A stretch of 64,000 bases of DNA from Thiohalocapsa sp. (GCA_028277725.1 JANQFX010000118.1:241-64240), one strand, 5' to 3'. Positions 27,871-37,874 are shown, numbered from the stretch's first letter. Made by a program: numbers and translations. The notes: generated by a model from the sequence alone, not told the origin.

Positions 27871-28803
27871 ATGTCCGCCATCACCGCCTTTCCCCTGCTG
27901 GCGCTGTTGTGCTCGGCACTCGCCTTCTGGCAGCCCGGCTGGTTCACGCCGCTGAGGCCCGCCATCGTGCCCCTGCTCGGGCTGATCATGTTCGGCATGG
28001 GCGCCACGCTGACCTGGCGGCAGTTCAGCGAGGTGGCGCGACGGCCGAGGCGCGTGGGCCTGGGGCTGTTGCTGCAGTTCGGTGTCATGCCGCTGGCGGC
28101 CTGGTGCATCGGCCTCTGGCTCGGGCTGTCGCCGGAGCTGCTGGCCGGGCTCGTGCTGGTGGGGGCGAGCCCCGGTGGCACGGCGTCCAATGTGGTCTGC
28201 TACCTGGCGCGCGGGGATGTCGCCCTGTCCATTACGCTGACCGCGGTCTCGACCCTGGTCGCCGTTGCGGCGACGCCAGTGCTGACCTGGCTCTATGTCG
28301 GGCGCGAGGTGCCCGTGCCGGTCTGGGACATGCTGCGCTCCATCCTGCAGATCGTCCTGCTGCCCGTCGGTCTGGGGGTGCTGGTGAACACCTGGCTCCT
28401 GCGCGGGCGCGACGGTGCCGCGGTGCGCCGCGTGCGTGCTGCCCTGCCCCTGCTGTCCATGGCGTCGATCGTGCTGATCATCGGCATCATCGTTGCGCTC
28501 AACGTCGACAACATCGCCGCCGGCGGCGCGCTCATCGCCTTGGCCGTCGTCCTGCACAACGCCATCGGCCTCGGTGCCGGTTACGGCCTGGGCTGGCTGG
28601 CCACACGCGATGCGCGCGCCGCGCGGACCCTGGCCATCGAGGTCGGCATGCAGAACTCGGGGCTCGCGGTGGCACTCGCGGTCAAGTACTTCACGCCGGC
28701 CGCAGCCATCCCGGGTGCCCTGTTCTCCATCTGGCACAACCTGTCGGGTTCGGCGTTGGCGGCGGTGTGGGCCGGTCGCCAGCCCAGGGAGACCGCGCCT
28801 TAG
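27871..28803 (+). CDS. Bile acid:sodium symporter family transporter (BASS/PanS-like)
   Basis: Motifs 'MFGMG', 'QFGVMP', 'PGGTASNV', 'IEVGMQNSG' and 'FSIWHN'. Confidence 0.92.
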   Translation: MSAITAFPLLALLCSALAFWQPGWFTPLRPAIVPLLGLIMFGMGATLTWRQFSEVARRPRRVGLGLLLQFGVMPLAAWCIGLWLGLSPELLAGLVLVGASPGGTASNVVCYLARGDVALSITLTAVSTLVAVAATPVLTWLYVGREVPVPVWDMLRSILQIVLLPVGLGVLVNTWLLRGRDGAAVRRVRAALPLLSMASIVLIIGIIVALNVDNIAAGGALIALAVVLHNAIGLGAGYGLGWLATRDARAARTLAIEVGMQNSGLAVALAVKYFTPAAAIPGALFSIWHNLSGSALAAVWAGRQPRETAP

Positions 28804-28838
28804 TGACCACGTCGCATAAGATGATAACCATGCTCGAT

Positions 28839-28871
28839 TCGTTGTCGTTGTCGTTGTCGTTGTCGAAATCG
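28839..28871. repeat. (TCGTTG)n tandem repeat; half copy of the GTTGTCG element family
   Basis: TCGTTGTCGTTGTCGTTGTCGTTGTCGAAATCG resembles the left arm of the 59552 element. Confidence 0.6.
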
Positions 28872-29054
28872 TAAGCGCCAACATCGCGGACGTCTTGACG
28901 AATACTTGATCACAAACGCGCTAACGGACACGATCCGGAATCGATCCGCGGTCGGCGTTGTTTGCGGAGCGCGAGCGCAGCAGGTCTGGGCGCGGAGTCT
29001 TGACACCCGGGCCAGGCAGATCAGCCTGCAAACAAGAAAGAGTTGCATCCGCAT

Positions 29055-29069
29055 TGATAATTGTGGACA
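29055..29069 (+). promoter_or_regulatory. Possible Fur box
   Basis: TGATAATTGTGGACA versus TGATAATnATTATCA: perfect left half, about 50 bp before the HMA2 gene. Confidence 0.35.
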
Positions 29070-29118
29070 CTCTCCAGCAGACGACATCAACAGTCCTTCG
29101 CGTGAGCCCCGACAAGCC

Positions 29119-29472
29119 ATGAGCCAGTACATCCATCACGTACCCGGTCGACTCCGGATCCGCTCCCAGTCCCTGCGTTGCCGTTCGGACAAGGCGCTCG
29201 CCGCCCAGAACCGGCTCGTCTCCATGGACGGGGTGCAGTCGGTGCGCATCAACCCGCGCGCCGGCAGCATCACCATCCTCTATGATGCCGATGTGCTGGG
29301 GCAGGCCGACCTGCTGGGCACCCTGCACGAGGTCGGCTGCATGTCCGGCACCGTTCGCTCCGACGAGCATGTCCGCAAGATGGCCGATACTTTCGGTAAG
29401 GCATTGGTCGGTGCGGTCATGCAGAAGGCCATGGAGCAGTCGGCGCGCACCCTGGTGGGCGCCCTGATCTGA
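29119..29472 (+). CDS. HMA2-type domain protein (FezC-like)
   Basis: 'YIHHVPGRLRIRS...GVQSVRINPRAGSITILYD': ferredoxin-like fold without CxxC, plus an amphipathic C-terminal tail. Confidence 0.75.
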   Translation: MSQYIHHVPGRLRIRSQSLRCRSDKALAAQNRLVSMDGVQSVRINPRAGSITILYDADVLGQADLLGTLHEVGCMSGTVRSDEHVRKMADTFGKALVGAVMQKAMEQSARTLVGALI

Positions 29473-29947
29473 TGCCGCCCAGGACTGCGCAACCCCACCG
29501 GCGCTTATCCGAGCACGATGCGCGGCAGCGTAAGGCATGACCGGCCGCCCAGCCGGTCCTTCCACACTTGAGCCGGACCGGTACTGAACTCGCAGGGTCG
29601 GCCCGCGCCGGTCGGTCCGTGCCGACCCCTTCATCCTCTCCTCCCCGGCCGGGCTACTGCGAGCCGAAACAAGGGCCGCGGGCATCAGTGCTCGCTCGCT
29701 GTACCGCCCCGTGCGTCCTTGCACGGCGGTGTGGGCCGCCTTACAGTCCTTCTGCTGAGTTGCGTTATTTTCCTTGCGGAATCGAGTCGCCCCCCTACTC
29801 GGTTCTGCGGGGCCGTGCAAGAGAGTAGACTTGCGCGACCGGTACGCGCCCGGTCCGGGCGCCGGGATCGTGCGTCGGGTCCTCAGGCGGACCGGGCGGC
29901 GCCAACGCGATGATATAGCCGCCATTTGCGACAGGAGAGCAGACAAC

Positions 29948-30931
29948 ATGAGCGAACACGAGCAGGGTGGGCGAGCCCAGACGGGGGCGCAGGGAGGGAT
30001 GCCGCAGGGCATCTCCGGCGCCCAAGGCCAGGCTGCGGCCGGCTCGAATGTTGGAGAAGGCCAGGCGATCTATGGCGCCATGGGATCGGTGCAAGGTCAG
30101 GCGCCAGCGCAGGGCGCTGGCAAGGACACACAGCCGAGCGCTGGGCAGGCCGCTGGACCCGCCATGGCCGACGTACAGCAGGGTGGACCGGCCATGCAGC
30201 CACCCGCACAGGAGGCCGGGCAGCAAGCCGGGATGGCCGCGATGCAGGGCTATTCCGCGAATGGCGCCGCGGGCTATCCGGCTGGACCTGCCGCGCAGGG
30301 CTATGGCGTGGCTGCCTATGCGCAGTACGCCGCACCGATGATGGGCGCGGGCCCAGCCGGTTATGCGCAAAGCGACCAGATGCAGGGCGGACAGATGCAC
30401 GGCGCGATGTCGGGCGCTACCTACGCCTCGCCGCAGATGACGCCTGCGCAGACGGCCCAATCCCAGACCGCTCAGGCGCAGGTGCCGCCCGGTGCTTACC
30501 CCCAATACGCGCCGCAGTACGCCATGCAGTACCCGGCCCAGCCCGCGCCCCAGTATCTGCCCCAATACCCTTACGCCTATGCGCCGGTTGCCCCGGCAGC
30601 GATGGGTGCCGGGCCCCAGCAGCCGCCGGCCGGCACCCCCGGGGCCGCCGGCGGCCAAGCCGGCCGCGGCCAGGCCGGCATCGCCTCCCTGATGGAGGAG
30701 ATCAACAACGGCGGCACCGGCCTCAATAGCCTGAGCCAGATGCTCAACCTCGACGACACGGAGTTCTGGAAGGGCGCCCTGGTGGGTGCCGCCGCGGTGG
30801 TGCTGTTCACCAACGAGTCGGTCCAGAACGCCCTGTTCAAGACCGGCGCCAAGACGTCCGAGGCCATGCGCAGCGGTGTCGACAAACTCAAGTCGGCGGC
30901 GGGCGATGCCGCGGGCGAGGCGAAGGAGTAG
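29948..30931 (+). CDS. Q/G/A/Y/P-rich low-complexity protein with a C-terminal GxxxG membrane helix and amphipathic helix (YtxH/FezA-like)
   Basis: AGGAG upstream of ATG 29948. About 260 aa disordered region, then 'FWKGALVGAAAVVLFTNESVQ'. Confidence 0.7.
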   Translation: MSEHEQGGRAQTGAQGGMPQGISGAQGQAAAGSNVGEGQAIYGAMGSVQGQAPAQGAGKDTQPSAGQAAGPAMADVQQGGPAMQPPAQEAGQQAGMAAMQGYSANGAAGYPAGPAAQGYGVAAYAQYAAPMMGAGPAGYAQSDQMQGGQMHGAMSGATYASPQMTPAQTAQSQTAQAQVPPGAYPQYAPQYAMQYPAQPAPQYLPQYPYAYAPVAPAAMGAGPQQPPAGTPGAAGGQAGRGQAGIASLMEEINNGGTGLNSLSQMLNLDDTEFWKGALVGAAAVVLFTNESVQNALFKTGAKTSEAMRSGVDKLKSAAGDAAGEAKE

Positions 30932-30937
30932 CGACCC

Positions 30938-31315
30938 ATGAGCGAGACCTACCCAGTCCACTACCTGCCGTCGTCCATGGTGCAACAGAGCCCGGCGCCC
31001 GCCCCCGCGGCTACCGACTGCTCGGCACTGATCGGATACGCCACCCTCGGCGCCGTTGTGGGTGCGTCCGCGGCGGGTGGTGCCAACATCCTGCGGGTGC
31101 AGCGCGAGGAGCTCACCGCCACCGAGGCCCTGGCCGATACGGGCAAGGCTGCCCTGGCCGGCGCTGCTGCAACCGCCGTGGCTGGGGCCGCCGCGGGTCT
31201 CGTGGCCAAAGAGGGGGTCACCCGCCTGGCCGTGCTGCTCGCCGCCGGCACCGCCGTGATGTACGGTATCCAGCGCCGCTGGGGCGCCGAAGCGCTGGTG
31301 GAGGATCAACCATGA
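30938..31315 (+). CDS. MamC-like membrane protein (copy 1)
   Basis: 'LGAVVGASAAGGANILRVQREELTATEALADTGKAALAG' closely parallels the MamC/Mms13 TM-loop-TM as recalled. AAGGAG RBS. Confidence 0.75.
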   Translation: MSETYPVHYLPSSMVQQSPAPAPAATDCSALIGYATLGAVVGASAAGGANILRVQREELTATEALADTGKAALAGAAATAVAGAAAGLVAKEGVTRLAVLLAAGTAVMYGIQRRWGAEALVEDQP

Positions 31316-31497
31316 GTTCCCATATGCAGCGCCAGCGCCATGGCGTCGCGAAGAACATCGCCGAGGGCGTCGGTGGGCTCGTGGTCGGCGCCGCCGCCGT
31401 GGTGTTGTTGCGGAGCCTGTTCAAGAAGAAATCCTCGACAACGACGCCGGCGGCGCCGAACCAGTTGGCTGAACCCACGAAGGAGGTCGAGGCATGA
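31312..31497 (+). CDS. Small single-TM GxxxG protein
   Basis: GGAGG RBS; ATGA overlaps at both ends; 'GVGGLVVGAAAVVLLRSLFKKK'. Confidence 0.65.
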   Translation: MSSHMQRQRHGVAKNIAEGVGGLVVGAAAVVLLRSLFKKKSSTTTPAAPNQLAEPTKEVEA

Positions 31498-31895
31498 GTC
31501 ACTACGAATCCAACCCCGGCCTGCCCTTGGCCTATCACGACCAGGCCCTCAGGCACGATGCCTATCCGAACGCCCACCAGCGCTCCGCTTATCCGGCGGG
31601 CGCCGGCAGCAGCTATCTGGAGCTCGGCAAACTCGGGGCCACGGTCGGGCTTTGCGGCGCGGCCGCGGCCAACCTGCACAAGCTGCGGAACGAGCAAGTG
31701 ACCGGCGGCGAGGCGATCATCGACAGCCTGCGCACGGGCGCCGCCGCGGGGCTCGCTACGGCGGCGGCCGGCTACATCGCCAACCAATTCAGGAGCCCCA
31801 CCACCTCGCTTGCGGCGACGCTGATCGCGGGCACCGCCTTTATGTATTTGCTGAACAGCGATGGCCCAGTGGAGGCCGAAGGAGACAAGTCATGA
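31494..31895 (+). CDS. MamC-like membrane protein (copy 2)
   Basis: 'LGATVGLCGAAAANLHKLRNEQVTGGEAIIDSLRTGAAAGLATAAA'; AGGAGG RBS. Confidence 0.75.
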   Translation: MSHYESNPGLPLAYHDQALRHDAYPNAHQRSAYPAGAGSSYLELGKLGATVGLCGAAAANLHKLRNEQVTGGEAIIDSLRTGAAAGLATAAAGYIANQFRSPTTSLAATLIAGTAFMYLLNSDGPVEAEGDKS

Positions 31896-32344
31896 GCTAT
31901 GGCCAGAACCAACAGGGCCAGATGATGGGTTACCCGGCCGGTCAGATGCCAACGGGCCAGATGGGCGCCGGCCAGATGGGCGTTGGCATGCAGCAGGCGA
32001 TGGGCGGCACCCCGATTGGTGCGAATATGGCTGCGCAGATCCAGTATCCGCAGTCCGGGTATGTGCAGCCGGGCTACTATGTCGCGACCTATCAGCCCTA
32101 TCCGCAGCAGCAGCCCAGCCTGCTGTCTGGGCTCACCACCGACCGCTTCCTGAAGGGCCTGCTGGTGGGCGCCGCGGCGGCCTACATCCTCACCAACGAG
32201 TCCGTTCAGCGCACGGCCATCAAGGGTGCGGTCAAGGCGTGGACGACCGTGCAGGGCGGTCTGGAGGAGGTCAAGGAGCGCTTCCAGGACGCCGAGGCCG
32301 AATTGCACGCGGCCGAGGCCGCGAAGCCCTCGAACGCCGGTTAG
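31892..32344 (+). CDS. Q/G/M/Y-rich N-terminus plus GxxxG helix and coiled coil (YtxH/FezA-like)
   Basis: AAGGAG RBS; ATGA overlap; 'FLKGLLVGAAAAYILTNESVQ...EEVKERFQDAEAE'. Immediately precedes the ATPase. Confidence 0.75.
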   Translation: MSYGQNQQGQMMGYPAGQMPTGQMGAGQMGVGMQQAMGGTPIGANMAAQIQYPQSGYVQPGYYVATYQPYPQQQPSLLSGLTTDRFLKGLLVGAAAAYILTNESVQRTAIKGAVKAWTTVQGGLEEVKERFQDAEAELHAAEAAKPSNAG

Positions 32345-32393
32345 GGACGCGCCTCAACCCAGACAGAGCAGTTGACCGCGCTGGCTCCTTACG

Positions 32394-34538
32394 ATGTCGA
32401 GCATGGATTATCACATCGTACACGAGTTGCCGGGCCGGTTGCGGCTGCGCATCCCGTCCATGGGCGAGCCCGGTTACGAGGCGTCCTATCTCGAGTCCTG
32501 GATGGACGTGGCGGCGCCCGTGCAGGAGGTCCGCTGTAATCGCGCCTCCAGGTCGCTGGTGATCATCTTCGAGCAGCGTGATGGGGCCAGGGACGCGATT
32601 CTGCGCCGGCTGGACGCCTTTTCCCCGGAGCAGATCCCCGGCTTCAGTGAGGACGGCGTCCGCGACGCCGAGGTCGCGCCGATGATCACCACGGCCGCGA
32701 CGATCGCCCTGCTTCCCTTCCTCCCTCCGGTCATGCAGCGGCTGCTGACCTTCGTCAACGTCAGCTCCACCCTCGCCAAGGGGGCCGATACCCTGGTGAA
32801 CGAAGGGGTCAAGATGGAGGTGCTCGACGCCCTGGCCGTCGGGCTGGCGGCGGGCAAGGGGGAGGTCTACACCGCCAACATCACCGACTTCCTGCTGAGC
32901 CTGGGCGAGTTCCTGGAGCGGCGCACGGAGCGCCAGTCCGACCGCCTGCTGCGGCGCCTGTTGCGCCCGGAGCCGGCCATGGCCTGGGTGGAGCGCGACG
33001 GCGAGCTGGTGCAGGTGGCCGGGGACGAGGTGCTGGCGGGCGAGATCGTCAGCGTTGGCGTCGGAGAGACCATCCCGGCGGATGGGCGCGTGGTGGAAGG
33101 TGCCGCGCTGGTCAATCAGGCGGCGGTCACGGGTGAGGATGTGCCTGTGCGTCGCGAGGCGCCGAAGCGGGTCATCGCCGGCTCGACGCTGGTGGAAGGC
33201 CGCATCCGCGTGGAGGCGACCCATGTCGGCGACGACACCACCACGGCGCGGGTCTCGCGCTTCATCCAAGACTCCCTGAGCAAGCAATCGGATACGCAGC
33301 GGCTCGCCGAACGCCTTGCCGACAAGCGGGTCTATCTGACGCTGGGCACGGGTGGCCTGGTCTATGCCCTGACCCGCGACCTGACCCGGCTGCAGGCGGT
33401 CTTTTTGGTGGACTACTCCTGCGCGCTCAAGCTCGGCACACCGGTGGCGTTCAAGTCCGGCATGTACCGGGCCGCGGCACACGGCGTGCTGATGAAGGGT
33501 GGCGATGCCATCGAGCACCTGGCCGCGGTGGACACCGTCGTCTTCGACAAGACCGGTACCCTGACCCATAGCGACCTCATCGTCACGGACGTGGTCGTGC
33601 TCGGCAACGGCGAGACCTGTTCCGAACAGGACCTGCTTGCGCTGGTGGCCTCCGTGGAGGAGCATGCAAGCCACCCGGTCGCCAAGGCCGTGGTGGAGGC
33701 CGCCCGCGAGCGCGATCTGCAGCACATCTCCCACGGCGAGGTGGACTACATGGTCGCCCACGGCATGGCCGCGGATATCAAGAAGGGCGGGCGCATTTTC
33801 GTCGGTAGCCGGCACTACCTCGAGGAACACCTCGACATCCACTTCGGCCGCTTCGAGCAGCGCATCGAAGCATTCCAGGAGGAGGGCAAGACGCTGCTGT
33901 TCGTCGGCAACCAGGACGGGCCCGTGGGCCTGGTCGCCCTGCGCGACACCCTGCGAGAGGACGCATCTACCGCGCTGCAGCGGCTGCGCACCCTCGGCAT
34001 CGAGCGACTGGTCATGATCACCGGTGACCGCCGCAACAAGGCCGAGGCCCTGGCGCGCGAGGTGGGCATCGACGAGGTGTATGCCGACATGCGCCCCGAG
34101 GAGAAGGCCGGCGTCATCCAGCGACTCCAGCAGGAGGGGCGCAAGGTCGCCTTCGTCGGCGACGGTGTCAACGATGGGCCCGCCCTCGCCACCGCGGAGG
34201 TGGGCATTGCCATGCCGCGTGGCGCAGACATCGCCCGGGCCACCGCCGATATCGTGCTGATGGACGATCGCTTGGACGTGGTCGCGGACGCTCGCGAGAT
34301 TGCGACTAAGACCATGCGCATGATCCGCGGGAACTTCAACGCCGCCGTCGGCATCAATACCGGCGTACTGGCCGGTGCCATCATGGGCTGGCTGTCCCCG
34401 GTGGCTAGCGCGGTGCTGCACAATGGCACCACCATCGGTATCCTGCTCAATGCCCTGCGCGGCGTGCAGCTATCCAGCGACGCCGAGCAGCCGTTGGGCC
34501 GGCGGGTAACCGCATTTCGGGATTCGCTGGCCGAGTAA
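32394..34538 (+). CDS. fezB: Heavy-metal P-type ATPase, P1B-6 / FezB type
   Basis: N-terminal 'HELPGRLRLR', TGE, DYSCALKL in place of CPC, DKTGT, HP, TGD, GDGVND and HNGTT. Start may be 32403. Confidence 0.85.
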   Translation: MSSMDYHIVHELPGRLRLRIPSMGEPGYEASYLESWMDVAAPVQEVRCNRASRSLVIIFEQRDGARDAILRRLDAFSPEQIPGFSEDGVRDAEVAPMITTAATIALLPFLPPVMQRLLTFVNVSSTLAKGADTLVNEGVKMEVLDALAVGLAAGKGEVYTANITDFLLSLGEFLERRTERQSDRLLRRLLRPEPAMAWVERDGELVQVAGDEVLAGEIVSVGVGETIPADGRVVEGAALVNQAAVTGEDVPVRREAPKRVIAGSTLVEGRIRVEATHVGDDTTTARVSRFIQDSLSKQSDTQRLAERLADKRVYLTLGTGGLVYALTRDLTRLQAVFLVDYSCALKLGTPVAFKSGMYRAAAHGVLMKGGDAIEHLAAVDTVVFDKTGTLTHSDLIVTDVVVLGNGETCSEQDLLALVASVEEHASHPVAKAVVEAARERDLQHISHGEVDYMVAHGMAADIKKGGRIFVGSRHYLEEHLDIHFGRFEQRIEAFQEEGKTLLFVGNQDGPVGLVALRDTLREDASTALQRLRTLGIERLVMITGDRRNKAEALAREVGIDEVYADMRPEEKAGVIQRLQQEGRKVAFVGDGVNDGPALATAEVGIAMPRGADIARATADIVLMDDRLDVVADAREIATKTMRMIRGNFNAAVGINTGVLAGAIMGWLSPVASAVLHNGTTIGILLNALRGVQLSSDAEQPLGRRVTAFRDSLAE

Positions 34539-34649
34539 CAGCCATCCACAAGGGCCGCCGCTCCAGGGACGGTTGATCGCGAGACCCGTGTCGGCGTGAC
34601 CGGCCGCGGTCTGAGCCTTGTGGCCCTAGTCATTCGAGGACACCAATCG

Positions 34650-34811
34650 ATGCCTTTCCCACTCATCCCCTTCCTGTCGGGTGCGGCCTTCGGTTCCGCG
34701 CTTACCTATCTGTTGACGCGCAGGTCCGAGGTCATCGAACTCAGGCCGCCGCAAACGACCGCCGGCACGGAAAGCGCTGCCGACAAGGGCAGCTCGGCCG
34801 GCCCTGCTTGA
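34650..34811 (+). CDS. Small GxxxG membrane protein
   Basis: GAGGA RBS; MPFPLIPFLSGAAFGSALTYLLTRR. Confidence 0.55.
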   Translation: MPFPLIPFLSGAAFGSALTYLLTRRSEVIELRPPQTTAGTESAADKGSSAGPA

Positions 34812-34901
34812 GCCCGGCCGGCCGGGCTCCGCGTGAGGAGATCTGGGTTCGAGACCTGGGTTCAGGAAAGCTCGTCCTGGCAATCGGCGCAGGCAGTGGC
34901 T

Positions 34902-35693
34902 TCAGGCGATGGGCTCCGGCGCCAGGGCATGGGCCGCGAGACCTCCACCGAAGCGCTCGCGCATCCTCGTCAGCAGAGGCGCTCGATCAGCGTTTGGCGA
35001 GCGCAATAGCCGCTGTGTGGCCGGCCCCCAGGCGTCGGGTCGGCCTGCGGGTAGGGTCCTGACCCTGGCGCTGCCGGATGCCTGGCCTTTATCGGTCGCG
35101 GACCGAGTCTGGCGCCCCGTCCTAGCGCCTTGTGCGGGCATGTGCCGAGTCCATTCCTGCCACCAGCAGCGCACCGTCGAACGCAGGAGCCAGACCGTGA
35201 GGCGGCGCTGCACCGCGCACCAGGGGCAACTCGTGGCCTTGCGAGGGCCGCAGCGGTCGCGTGGGCGGATCATGGCCGGGGGATGTGTCCGCGCCTTGCC
35301 CCGTTGCCGCGCTGGGCCTGGTCGAGGGGCGCGTCGCCATTGGTGCCCGCTCCAGAATGCGTTCCCGCTGCCTTTGCCCTTACGACGATCGAGCGGCGCT
35401 TCATCGCGCTCTGATGCGTTGCTTTGACATGGGGTGCTGCGCAGGCGCTCCGGGGTCAAGGTTACCGGGTCGTAGCGCACCACCAGGCTCGCGCAGCGCA
35501 TATTGAGGCGTACGGAGTGCACCCCCGGCTGGCGTGCCATGGTGGCGGCGATGTCCTGCATCCAGGCCGCCTCGAGGCTGGCCTTGTCGCGTGTGCCCGC
35601 AGTCCGCCCTGCGGCGTTCGGCGGCCGTTGTTGCGGCGGCGACTGGATACGGAAGCGGACCCTTCCCGGTACCTGATGGCGTATTTGGAGCAT
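34902..35693 (-). CDS. HMA2-type domain protein with an Arg-rich CPWC-containing extension
   Basis: 'IRHQVPGRVRFRI...GVHSVRLNMRCASLVVRYDP' is paralogous to 29119 and to the ATPase N-terminus. Confidence 0.6.
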   Translation of the reverse strand: MLQIRHQVPGRVRFRIQSPPQQRPPNAAGRTAGTRDKASLEAAWMQDIAATMARQPGVHSVRLNMRCASLVVRYDPVTLTPERLRSTPCQSNASERDEAPLDRRKGKGSGNAFWSGHQWRRAPRPGPARQRGKARTHPPAMIRPRDRCGPRKATSCPWCAVQRRLTVWLLRSTVRCWWQEWTRHMPAQGARTGRQTRSATDKGQASGSARVRTLPAGRPDAWGPATQRLLRSPNADRAPLLTRMRERFGGGLAAHALAPEPIA

Positions 35694-35735
35694 GGCTGAC
35701 TCGAGAAAAACACATTGATCCTGTCCGCGTACTCT

Positions 35736-35754
35736 ATTGCGAATCGCTTGCATT
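35736..35754 (-). promoter_or_regulatory. Putative Fur box
   Basis: ATTGCGAATCGCTTGCATT, an AT-rich 19-mer about 43 bp upstream of the 35693 start. Confidence 0.5.
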
Positions 35755-36110
35755 AGCAATGATGCGTCGGATGTCCTATGCTCGAGGTGTCCGAGTCTAA
35801 CCGGGAGTCCGTGTAGCTGATGCGAAGCGATTCTGACAAGACATGCAAGCGTCGCGCGCCGTCGGGCGCGGGGGGCGTTTGCGAGGGTTCCAGCCCTGAG
35901 GGCGGCCCGGTTGCACCGGCTTCGCAGTTTCGCCGCCGTGCCTGGCGCTGGTTTGCCCAGACGGTCCGGGCGATGCCTTTGACGGGACGCGGACGCCGCT
36001 GGGCACTGCTGAGAGCCCTGGCGGCGGAGCGGGCGACGACCGGGCCGCGTGGCCGGTGAGTCGAGCCTGAACGGCGACCGTAGGACCGGACGCCCTGTCT
36101 TGAGGTCCGG

Positions 36111-37090
36111 CTATTTCGTCGCTCCGCCTGCTGAGGTCGCGCCATACCATCGCTCCACGGTGTCGAGCAGGGACTCGCGGGAGAGCGGTTTGGTGACGAA
36201 GTCGTCCATGCCTGCGTCCAGGCAGCGCTGTCGCTCCTCCTCCAGGGCCTGGGCGGTCAAGGCGATGATGGGAACGCGTCCGGCGGGGCTTGCGAGCCTG
36301 CGCACGCGGCGGGCCGTCTCCACACCGTCCATCACGGGCATGTCCACGTCCATGAGCACGCAGCCGAGGGGGCCAGAGCAGATCGTTTCCAACGCCTTGG
36401 CGCCGTCGTCAGTACGGCATAGCCTGCCTTCTTCAGCATCGCCTTGGCGATGGCCGTATTCGTCGGCACGTCGTCCATCACCAACACCGGCAGCGCCGCC
36501 TTGTCGTCCGTTCCCTTGTCGAAACTTGGGGTGCGGCAGGGAGGGATAGGGTCCGGTTTCCGGTCGGCGCGCCGGTGTCGACGGCATGGCCAAGCAGATT
36601 GACCAACACCTGGCGCAGGCGCAGCGGGTCCAATAGCGCGACCCTGGGCAAGGTCTTCGTCCAAGGCCGCCCGCACGTCGTAGCCCTTGGCCTGCGCGAT
36701 GGGGTGTACAACGTCCGCGGCGGCGCGCACCGCATGCAGGATGATGCGTAGGTACGCCAGGTCCTCGTTGGCCAGGACGCCATCGGCAAAGCTGTCCAGG
36801 GAGGCCAAATCCTCGGACAGCACGGCGTCGCGGGCGAGCACGGCGAAGTTGGTCGTGACGTCGTTTGCCCGTGCGGCGAGGCCGTCCTGATGTGCCTGGG
36901 CCAGGAAGTTGAGGCTGGAGCCCACCAGGAGGCCGAGCAGCAGGAACTCGATCAGGGCAATGCCGAGGACGGTCTTTGCCCGGAAGAACAAGTGCCAAGA
37001 GCGTCGCCGCGGTGCGGGCGAGCCGTCGGGGCGGGGTTGCGCCCGAGACCGCTCCGATGCAGGTGCCGGGCCTGGATCAGGTCTGGTCAT
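36111..37090 (-). pseudogene. Decayed hybrid sensor histidine kinase / response regulator
   Basis: TM and sensor start (KTVLGIALIE...DAVLSEDLASL), HATPase N-box (DPLRLRQVLVNLLG) and receiver (VLVMDD...VLMDVDMPVMDG...TKP) lie in three different frames. HisKA and G-boxes are missing. Confidence 0.8.
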
Positions 37091-37602
37091 TCGACCGTCG
37101 CGTTCTTGCCGTCCAGCAGATCGATCTGAAGGGCGCGGACGTCGTCCCAGTCCGTGTCGGTTGCTTGCTCGATGCCAGCGAAGCCGATGCCGTCGAGCAG
37201 CGCCTGCCCCGCGTGGTCGTCGGCCATGGCGACCATGGCATCCCGCAGCCGCGCGATGGCCTGGGGGGCGATGCGGGGGTGCGCGGCGAAGGCGAGGTAG
37301 CCGGGCTCCTCATGGAAGACCGTGTAGTGGTAGGGGTTCATGTACGCGAGATCGTACTGACCCGCCGCCAGCCGTTGCTCGAAGGTCGGGATGTCAGGCG
37401 CCGTGCGAAAACCGACGGCGATGCTCGAGCGCTCACTGAGGGCCCGAAAGATCGGCGACCAAACCGCCGCGAGCTCGGCCGCGGCCTGCTGCGGCACGAC
37501 GCCGAAGGAGAGCGGCTCGTCGGCATCGGCCGCGTTGGCCGTCGAGAGCGAGCACAGGAGCACCGGCAGCAGCGCCAGCGAGCGGACGGCAGAAATGGGC
37601 AT
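37087..37602 (-). pseudogene. Phosphate/phosphonate-binding (PhnD-like) protein with an in-frame internal deletion
   Basis: Signal peptide, 'FGVVPQQ' and 'DLAYMNPYHY', then a direct jump to 'AFAAHPR'. Only 171 aa, lacking the central lobe. Confidence 0.65.
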
Positions 37603-37874
37603 AGTTTGGGATCCTACTGGAGACGCTGATGATTCTGGGATTGTTGGCCATCCATCACCAGAGTCCGCAAGAAATCGGCCGCCGTGGTGTTGTGTCCGCT
37701 CGTTGTCAGTGACTTGTGTCACTCAAGAATCCGGAGCATCCCCCCCCGCAACGGAAACGGCGACCCATCAGCGGTTCCCCGGGGTGTTCACGCGCAGCGT
37801 TCGCCCCGACCAGATTGTCATCGGCCCCAACTTGCTATCATCGCGGTTCCACCACGCGATACCCGGAAGTCGAC

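Follow-up and report, generated by a model that had tools for sequence, protein, structure and literature searches.

We report that a stretch of 64,000 nucleotides from Thiohalocapsa sp. (GCA_028277725.1 JANQFX010000118.1:241-64240; hereafter the window) probably carries, at positions 29119-35693, a fez operon, the type of gene cluster that underlies ferrosomes. The operon is of the type found in Chromatiaceae and corresponds by orthology to Alvin_1677-1681 of Allochromatium vinosum, with additional genes. Two lines of evidence support the assignment: a P-type ATPase that belongs to the P1B-6 class by both motif and tree, and small open reading frames (ORFs) orthologous to proteins in the fez-cluster groups of the ferrosome preprint by Grant et al. 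A sequence-only reading of this DNA had proposed a ferrosome-like cluster in a purple-sulfur-bacterial background and named missing Fez homology of the small ORFs as grounds for refutation; that homology is present, and the background is right as well. In the 4.35-Mb, 84%-complete host genome, of which the window is contig C36, pufL and pufM lie adjacent and identify a purple phototroph, and the nearest named relative of the pump comes from a Chromatiaceae metagenome-assembled genome (80% identity).

Gene inventory and the P1B-6 pump

All nine genes described in the sequence-only reading are real. Eight are co-oriented and encode, in order, an HMA_2 protein, a protein with an intrinsically disordered region (IDR) and a GxxxG motif, a MamC-like protein, a small GxxxG protein, a second MamC-like protein, a second IDR+GxxxG protein, the P-type ATPase and another small GxxxG protein; a convergent second HMA_2 gene follows. 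We number them g1 to g9:

g1, 29119-29472, + strand: 117-aa HMA_2 protein (Pfam HMA_2) with an N-terminal R-rich PGRLRIR and no CxxC
g2, 29948-30931, + strand: 327-aa low-complexity protein whose C terminus has a hydrophobic GxxxG segment, EFWKGALVGAAAVV; orthologue of Alvin_1681 (Grant group 2-3)
g3, 30938-31315, + strand: 125-aa MamC-family membrane protein of the g3 type, loop LTATEALAD; orthologue of Alvin_1680, Grant group 4-5
g4, 31312-31497, + strand: 61-aa protein with one hydrophobic segment containing GLVVG (hydropathy, tblastn)
g5, 31494-31895, + strand: 133-aa MamC-family membrane protein of the g5 type (second paralogue), loop VTGGEAIID (NCBIfam MamC)
g6, 31892-32344, + strand: 150-aa protein rich in Q/G/M/Y, with RFLKGLLVGAAAAY and an amphipathic helix at the C terminus; orthologue of Alvin_1678 (Grant group 2-1)
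g7, 32394-34538, + strand: 714-aa FezB-type P1B-6 ATPase (motifs and tree)
g8, 34650-34811, + strand: 53-aa peptide beginning MPFPLIPFLSGAAFGSALTYLL, with a minimal GxxxG hydrophobic segment, GAAFG
g9, 34902-35693, - strand: convergent HMA_2 protein (PGRVRFR) with a basic Cys/Trp-containing extension; exact end uncertain

The genes are tightly spaced. The pairs g3/g4, g4/g5 and g5/g6 each overlap by 4 bases, which points to co-translation, and g2 and g3 are separated by only 6 bases; g2 to g7 therefore have the look of a single unit with translational coupling. Between g1 and g2, a gap of 475 bp contains no ORF that is conserved in the related locus L006. An Rfam scan of positions 28000-36500 matched no RNA family, and a promoter and terminator scan did no better than shuffled sequence.

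Grant et al. define FezB, the P1B-6 pump, by D[Y/F]SCA and HNxxT and also note an R-rich N terminus. In g7, D[Y/F]SCA lies in the metal-binding transmembrane (TM) helix before DKTGT, and HNxxT lies in the last metal-binding TM helix. By residue, the motifs are GRLRLR at 14-19 (RLRLR from 15), TGE at 246, DYSCALK at 340-346, DKTGT at 385, GDGVND at 589 and HNGTT at 676-680; DYSCALK and HNGTT are identical in FezB of Shewanella putrefaciens CN-32 and Rhodopseudomonas palustris CGA009. The R-rich motif is found on the pump and its partners alike (GRLRLR in g7, GRLRIR in g1, GRVRFR in g9), in each case within an HMA_2-like N terminus, the Pfam HMA_2 match on the pump itself being sub-threshold. 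Features of the P1B-1 to P1B-4 classes are absent from g7: TM4 reads SCA instead of CPx, and the HMA_2 N terminus has no CxxC. In a tree built from the pumps fetched in this analysis, with no named P1B-3, P1B-4 or P1B-5 references, all DYSCA/HNxxT pumps including g7 form one clade, apart from the CPC pumps and from a FezH-like SCPC pump. Against the copper model TIGR01511, g7 scores 337 bits, under the cut-off of 397; it exceeds the cut-off of TIGR01512 (379 against 313.5 bits), a model that is broad and not specific. It is equally distant from the solved structures of CopA, ZntA and sCoaT (226-274 bits), and no P1B-6 structure exists among the solved P1B structures. With every published signature present and its placement among the DYSCA/HNxxT pumps, g7 is a FezB-type P1B-6 ATPase, as had been claimed.

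The host genome (G000) encodes two further P1B ATPases of interest. One, on contig C25 (47825-49858, - strand; L005:9721-11907), is a second P1B-6 pump with DYSCAIK, HNGST and RRLRLR that is 44% identical to g7 and branches at the base of the P1B-6 clade. Around it lie genes for a FeoA-domain protein, a CxxC HMA protein, a ZrgA-family protein and FeoB, but none for a GxxxG or MamC-family partner, and the same paralogue is present in genomes G183, G109, G150 and G199. The other, on contig C110 (61251-62897, - strand; L003), is FezH-like, with SCPCSTI, HIVHT and an N-terminal PGRLRVY; it is unlinked to the fez cluster and matches the FezH motif strings listed by Grant et al. for Thiocystis, Thiorhodococcus and Marichromatium.

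GxxxG, HMA_2 and MamC-family partners

According to hydropathy and motif counts, g2, g4, g6 and g8 each have a single short hydrophobic segment of the glycine-zipper type; none of the four has a Pfam match even at E 0.1. GxxxG motifs in a hydrophobic region of conserved-group proteins are among the features by which Grant et al. recognize a fez cluster, and they are found here. The g2 protein begins with about 270 residues rich in A/G/Q/P/M/Y, with 5% charged residues, followed by the hydrophobic EFWKGALVGAAAVVLF; the N-terminal part of g6 is Q/G/M/Y-rich with 0% charged residues and is followed by RFLKGLLVGAAAAY. The g2 motif matches the Alvin_1681 string (group 2-3) at 12 of 14 positions, and the g6 motif matches the Alvin_1678 string (group 2-1) at 10 of 14. 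The link to these groups goes through locus L062, which carries exactly the strings that Grant et al. list for Alvin_1677, Alvin_1678 and Alvin_1681 (HELSGRLRLRVP, RFLKGLMIGAAVTY and DFWKGALVGAAAVL) and aligns in order with g7, g6, g3 and g2 of the window; because it bears the Alvin strings and is orthologous to the window, g2 and g6 belong to groups 2-3 and 2-1. In nearly all P1B-6 loci that we fetched, the gene immediately before the pump is of the g6 type. For g4, tblastn found counterparts in 16 of 21 loci (39-69% identity); its place between the MamC-like and IDR2 genes is conserved. A g8-type peptide (M-x-x-PLIP-x-x-x-GA...G) sits directly downstream of the pump in three other genera (L035, L036, L037); in the window, g8 has an alternative GTG start at 34596.

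The HMA_2 protein g1 is a soluble R-rich partner of the FezD/FezC type. Its Pfam HMA_2 match (E 1.9e-10, 41.4 bits) exceeds the cut-off of 30, and orthologues are present in many loci, 75% identical in L006. The match of g9 (E 2.8e-5, 24.6 bits) stays under the cut-off. We considered whether g9 might be a spurious ORF and rejected this, as a composition-corrected search still shows conservation over residues 1-255 in L006 and over about residues 1-180 in L041 and L045.

The pair g3 and g5 is the part of the cluster of most interest. Against NCBIfam MamC (NF038051), g3 scores 28.3 bits (E 1.6e-6) and g5 35.9 bits (E 7.1e-9), both under the equivalog cut-off of 100 bits; against a family hidden Markov model built in this analysis, g3 reaches 110 bits. 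Pfam PF26373 ('MamC') already covers these proteins, g5 included, a name that comes from precomputed annotation. A profile of 15 Chromatiaceae proteins retrieved 219 relatives from 1.8 billion representative sequences, among them proteins scoring 115-135 bits on the NCBIfam equivalog model. When aligned to such high-scoring MamC sequences with hhalign, the profile gave 98.8% probability (E 1.1e-16) at 35% identity; the 85 aligned columns cover both hydrophobic segments and the helix between them. Sequence comparison therefore gives solid grounds for regarding g3 and g5 as homologous to MamC in the two-helix core. Like MamC/Mms13, the two proteins have a helix-loop-helix membrane core with an [E/D]-A-x-x-D helix after the first hydrophobic segment, and the alanine that follows the Glu is near-invariant (177 of 190 family members); unlike MamC/Mms13, they fall short of the equivalog cut-off, have a longer N terminus and lie in a fez cluster instead of a magnetosome island. 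Their hydrophobic stretches carry two GxxxG motifs. At 31% identity to each other, g3 and g5 represent two old types: some genera keep only one of them, and both occur together in at least eight loci, the window included, that is, in at least seven other fetched loci from four genera.

Relatives of the pair also occur in other settings. On a JGI metagenome contig (L058:1-3933), the MamC-family protein P0177 exceeds the equivalog cut-off with 117 bits, and its neighbours are an HMA_2 protein with a His7 tail, a DUF5132-like GxxxG protein and an HMA_2-ATPase with DYGTG in TM4 instead of DYSCA. A high MamC score therefore does not imply a magnetosome: the equivalog model gives the name MamC to non-magnetosome proteins. 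On a Logan contig (L048:534-4748), a MamC-family gene is flanked by unknown proteins of 159 and 130 aa, followed by a Peptidase_M75 (imelysin/EfeO-like) gene, a context that is iron-related and non-magnetosome. Most contigs examined for intermediate matches were too short to show a pump. We found no paper that links MamC to fez clusters or ferrosomes.

Conservation and comparison with known fez clusters

In about one fifth of the sampled family genomes, the cluster is a stable feature. Of 201 such genomes, 41, from 24 of 83 genera, have a FezB orthologue, and in 37 a MamC-like gene lies beside FezB. The order IDR1 (g2), MamC-like (g3), small protein, in some cases a second MamC-like protein, IDR2 (g6) and pump (g7) holds in 20 of 21 fetched Chromatiaceae loci, and two loci outside the Chromatiaceae, belonging to other gammaproteobacterial families, share this core order. 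In loci farther removed, all that remains is an IDR2-type GxxxG gene and HMA_2 genes. The exception within the family, L042 (G038:C1:2537000-2553000), is the second locus of a complete genome; it has IDR1 and MamC-like genes, lacks g6 and shows no pump within 8 kb. The second MamC-family paralogue, the extra HMA_2 genes and the small GxxxG tail gene are lineage-limited. Three family genomes have FezB orthologues with one in-frame stop (G098:C1:2164025-2166106, G006:C2:13877-15985, G021:C82:173-2239), and a same-genus genome contains a split, diverged copy with 55% and 45% identity in its two pieces (L034:9247-11010). Either the cluster is decaying in some lineages, or these may be errors of assembly.

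The closest described counterpart is the A. vinosum locus Alvin_1677-1681, which has the same order of IDR1 (2-3), MamC-like (4-5), small protein, IDR2 (2-1) and FezB, with the same pump motifs DYSCALK, HNGTT and GRLRLR. Identity to the window is 66% for the pump, 57-66% for the GxxxG domains and 42% for the MamC-like protein. The window has in addition the g5-type MamC paralogue, the two separate HMA_2 genes g1 and g9 and the g8 peptide; about 6 kb around the A. vinosum pump showed none of them. In published transcriptomes, all five A. vinosum genes fall together to 0.46-0.61-fold on pyrite versus sulfide (PMC11267869 Table S2), which demonstrates expression and co-variation of the genes and nothing more.

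Grant et al. had already catalogued much of this. Their supplement lists FezB homologues with the same motif strings, together with partners, in Allochromatium, Thiocystis, Thiocapsa, Marichromatium, Thiorhodococcus and Thioflavicoccus. In its groupings, Alvin_1678 belongs to GxxxG group 2-1, Alvin_1681 falls in group 2-3 together with proteins of Desulfovibrio, Denitrovibrio and Desulfarculus, and Alvin_1680 makes up group 4-5 with five other purple-sulfur proteins; other group 4 subgroups hold Sputcn32_3195 and RPA2335, from two experimentally proven six-gene fez operons. The claim that this lineage offers no characterised example thus holds for bench work, but not for the catalogue, in which six of its genera appear. 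Similarly, the membrane-protein set had been called unusually large and duplicated. With nine genes, the cluster falls inside the published range of 2-10 (Grant et al.), and its two IDR+GxxxG proteins are an old 2-3/2-1 pair found across phyla; a lineage-limited extra copy exists for the MamC-family gene alone.

Ferrosome formation is proven for the six-gene fez operons of S. putrefaciens CN-32 and R. palustris CGA009 and for fezABC of Desulfovibrio magneticus RS-1. The cluster in the window shares with them an R-rich pump N terminus, GxxxG proteins and R-rich HMA-type partners. The group-4 protein of the proven operons (Sputcn32_3195, RPA2335; about 90-120 aa) resembles g3 and g5, an orthology to FezF-type group 4-2 that rests on the network grouping of Grant et al. 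In contrast, the long Q/G/Y-rich tails and the doubled group-4 gene have not been described for the proven operons, and the cluster in the window has no DUF4405, DUF2202 ferritin-like or FeoA gene.

Proposed function, alternatives and meaning

How might the cluster work? On the published model of ferrosomes, the pump g7 would use ATP to move cytoplasmic Fe(II) into a small vesicle bounded by a membrane, and the iron would accumulate there as an iron-phosphate mineral. The proteins g2, g4, g6 and g8 may reside in the vesicle membrane through their short glycine-zipper segments and help to shape or populate it, while the uncharged Q/G/Y/M-rich tails of g2 and g6 could form a flexible coat or matrix. 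The MamC-family proteins g3 and g5 are predicted to cross the membrane as helical hairpins, with the connecting [E]-A-x-x-D helix probably facing the lumen and contacting the mineral, like the equivalent MamC loop in magnetosomes; this mineral would be amorphous iron phosphate, versus magnetite for MamC/Mms13. The HMA_2 proteins g1 and g9, which share their R-rich N-terminal module with the pump, are probably cytoplasmic partners. Cargo, organelle formation and topology we infer from the three species in which orthologous clusters are necessary for ferrosomes (D. magneticus, S. putrefaciens and R. palustris) and from Escherichia coli, in which the S. putrefaciens operon is sufficient (Grant et al.).

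Iron regulation of the cluster is putative; we scored Fur-like sites by matches to the 19-mer consensus GATAATGATAATCATTATC. Fur-like boxes had been reported at both outer ends of the cluster, a claim that we could not confirm in that form. An exact and a 3-mismatch search found no Fur 19-mer, and a looser scan found only weak sites, the best two upstream of g1 and none of at least 12/19 upstream of g9:

28817-28835, no strand assigned: weak Fur-box-like site, 13/19 to GATAATGATAATCATTATC, about 284 bp upstream of g1
29056-29074, no strand assigned: weak Fur-box-like site, 12/19, 45 bp upstream of g1

Across the 64-kb window, 14 sites reach 12/19 or more, and the majority lie within genes. Relatives often have better sites where the window has its 13/19 site. 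About 10 of 21 related loci carry a site of at least 13/19 no more than about 400 bp before a cluster gene, versus about 2 expected from overall density, a hand count in which the bias of AT-rich intergenic regions is uncontrolled and which is suggestive only. The best site that we saw (16/19, GATATTAGTTATCATTATC) lies about 160 bp upstream in L042. At 28840-28866 of the window, between the gene of an SBF-family transporter and g1, there is an intergenic hexamer repeat, (GTCGTT)x4.

Several observations weigh against the cluster being a ferrosome operon. For purple sulfur bacteria, no ferrosome is on record, and we came across no paper that describes one. Which metal P1B-6 pumps prefer has been deduced solely from their genomic context and from what granules of other species contain, not from biochemical measurement. 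The topology of g5 is predicted, since its AlphaFold2 model (15 sequences; helices at 40-65, 71-96 and 102-121) is of low confidence, with a pLDDT of 60. The E-x3-D pair that had been pointed out is indeed present in both g3 and g5; it does not define the MamC family, because only 73 of 190 members have it. To this we add the weakness of the Fur-like sites in the window and the immediate flanks, an SBF transporter and a broken-looking sensor, which are not iron genes. The latter, at 36111-37722 on the - strand, consists of Phosphonate-bd and Response_reg pieces in different overlapping frames, with no kinase domain detected, and looks like a frameshifted or decayed hybrid sensor gene. Farther out, about 12 kb downstream of the cluster, lies, according to the sequence-only reading, a Feo region.

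The main competing explanation is a plain metal-efflux or homeostasis module without an organelle: the pump would sit in the cytoplasmic or intracytoplasmic (chromatophore) membrane and export Fe(II) or another metal to the periplasm, with the small proteins as accessories. The cytoplasmic domains of g7 are indeed those of an ordinary P1B ATPase, no organelle has been seen in this lineage, and the C25 paralogue, which has no fez partners and lies among FeoA, FeoB, ZrgA and HMA neighbours, means that P1B-6 pumps can work outside a fez cluster. Yet efflux pumps do not come with five or six membrane or low-complexity partners in a fixed order across 24 genera, and the same protein families are necessary for ferrosomes in the three species named above and sufficient in E. 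coli when taken from S. putrefaciens. We therefore regard a simple efflux module as unlikely. Somewhat less probable still is a ferrosome-like vesicle with a different cargo (Mn, Zn or Co) or a non-phosphate mineral. Room for it is left by the indirect basis of P1B-6 specificity, by related pumps with an altered TM4 in similar clusters (DYGTG in L058) and by the ZrgA zinc-uptake family gene next to the C25 paralogue; the TM4 and TM6 residues of g7, however, are identical to those of the S. putrefaciens and R. palustris pumps, whose organelles hold iron, and Fur-like sites recur upstream of the cluster in relatives.

That the MamC-like genes are part or a remnant of a magnetosome system, in an organism that makes or once made magnetite, strikes us as highly improbable. 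They are true MamC relatives that keep the E-x3-D pair in the connecting helix, but their 28 and 36 bits are far from the equivalog cut-off, every neighbour is a member of a fez-cluster family, the genome has no MamC-family ORF beyond g3 and g5, and the location beside FezB recurs in the family genomes. We rejected a magnetosome remnant on this context of fez-type neighbours, other mam genes not having been searched for genome-wide.

What does a fez operon in this lineage add? It opens no new category: the supplementary tables of the ferrosome paper already list the pump, GxxxG partners and group-4 protein of this lineage. The doubled MamC-family gene is of modest extra interest. A broader idea, which we put forward tentatively and would not yet bet on, is that ferrosomes and magnetosomes share a lumen-facing, mineral-contacting protein family (MamC/FezF-type), with magnetosome MamC as one specialised branch of a wider ferrosome-cluster family and with a purple sulfur ferrosome that combines two such proteins with an uncharged Q/G/Y-rich matrix. 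The MamC-family pair is a candidate for this common mineral-contacting part. If this is true, the cluster would offer a tractable non-magnetotactic system for studying how MamC-type loops control iron mineral formation, and A. vinosum, with Alvin_1677-1681, is a cultured and genetically tractable relative. Present in about one fifth of the sampled family genomes, the fez cluster extends an organelle system only recently discovered in bacteria to anoxygenic phototrophs of interfaces rich in iron and sulfide.

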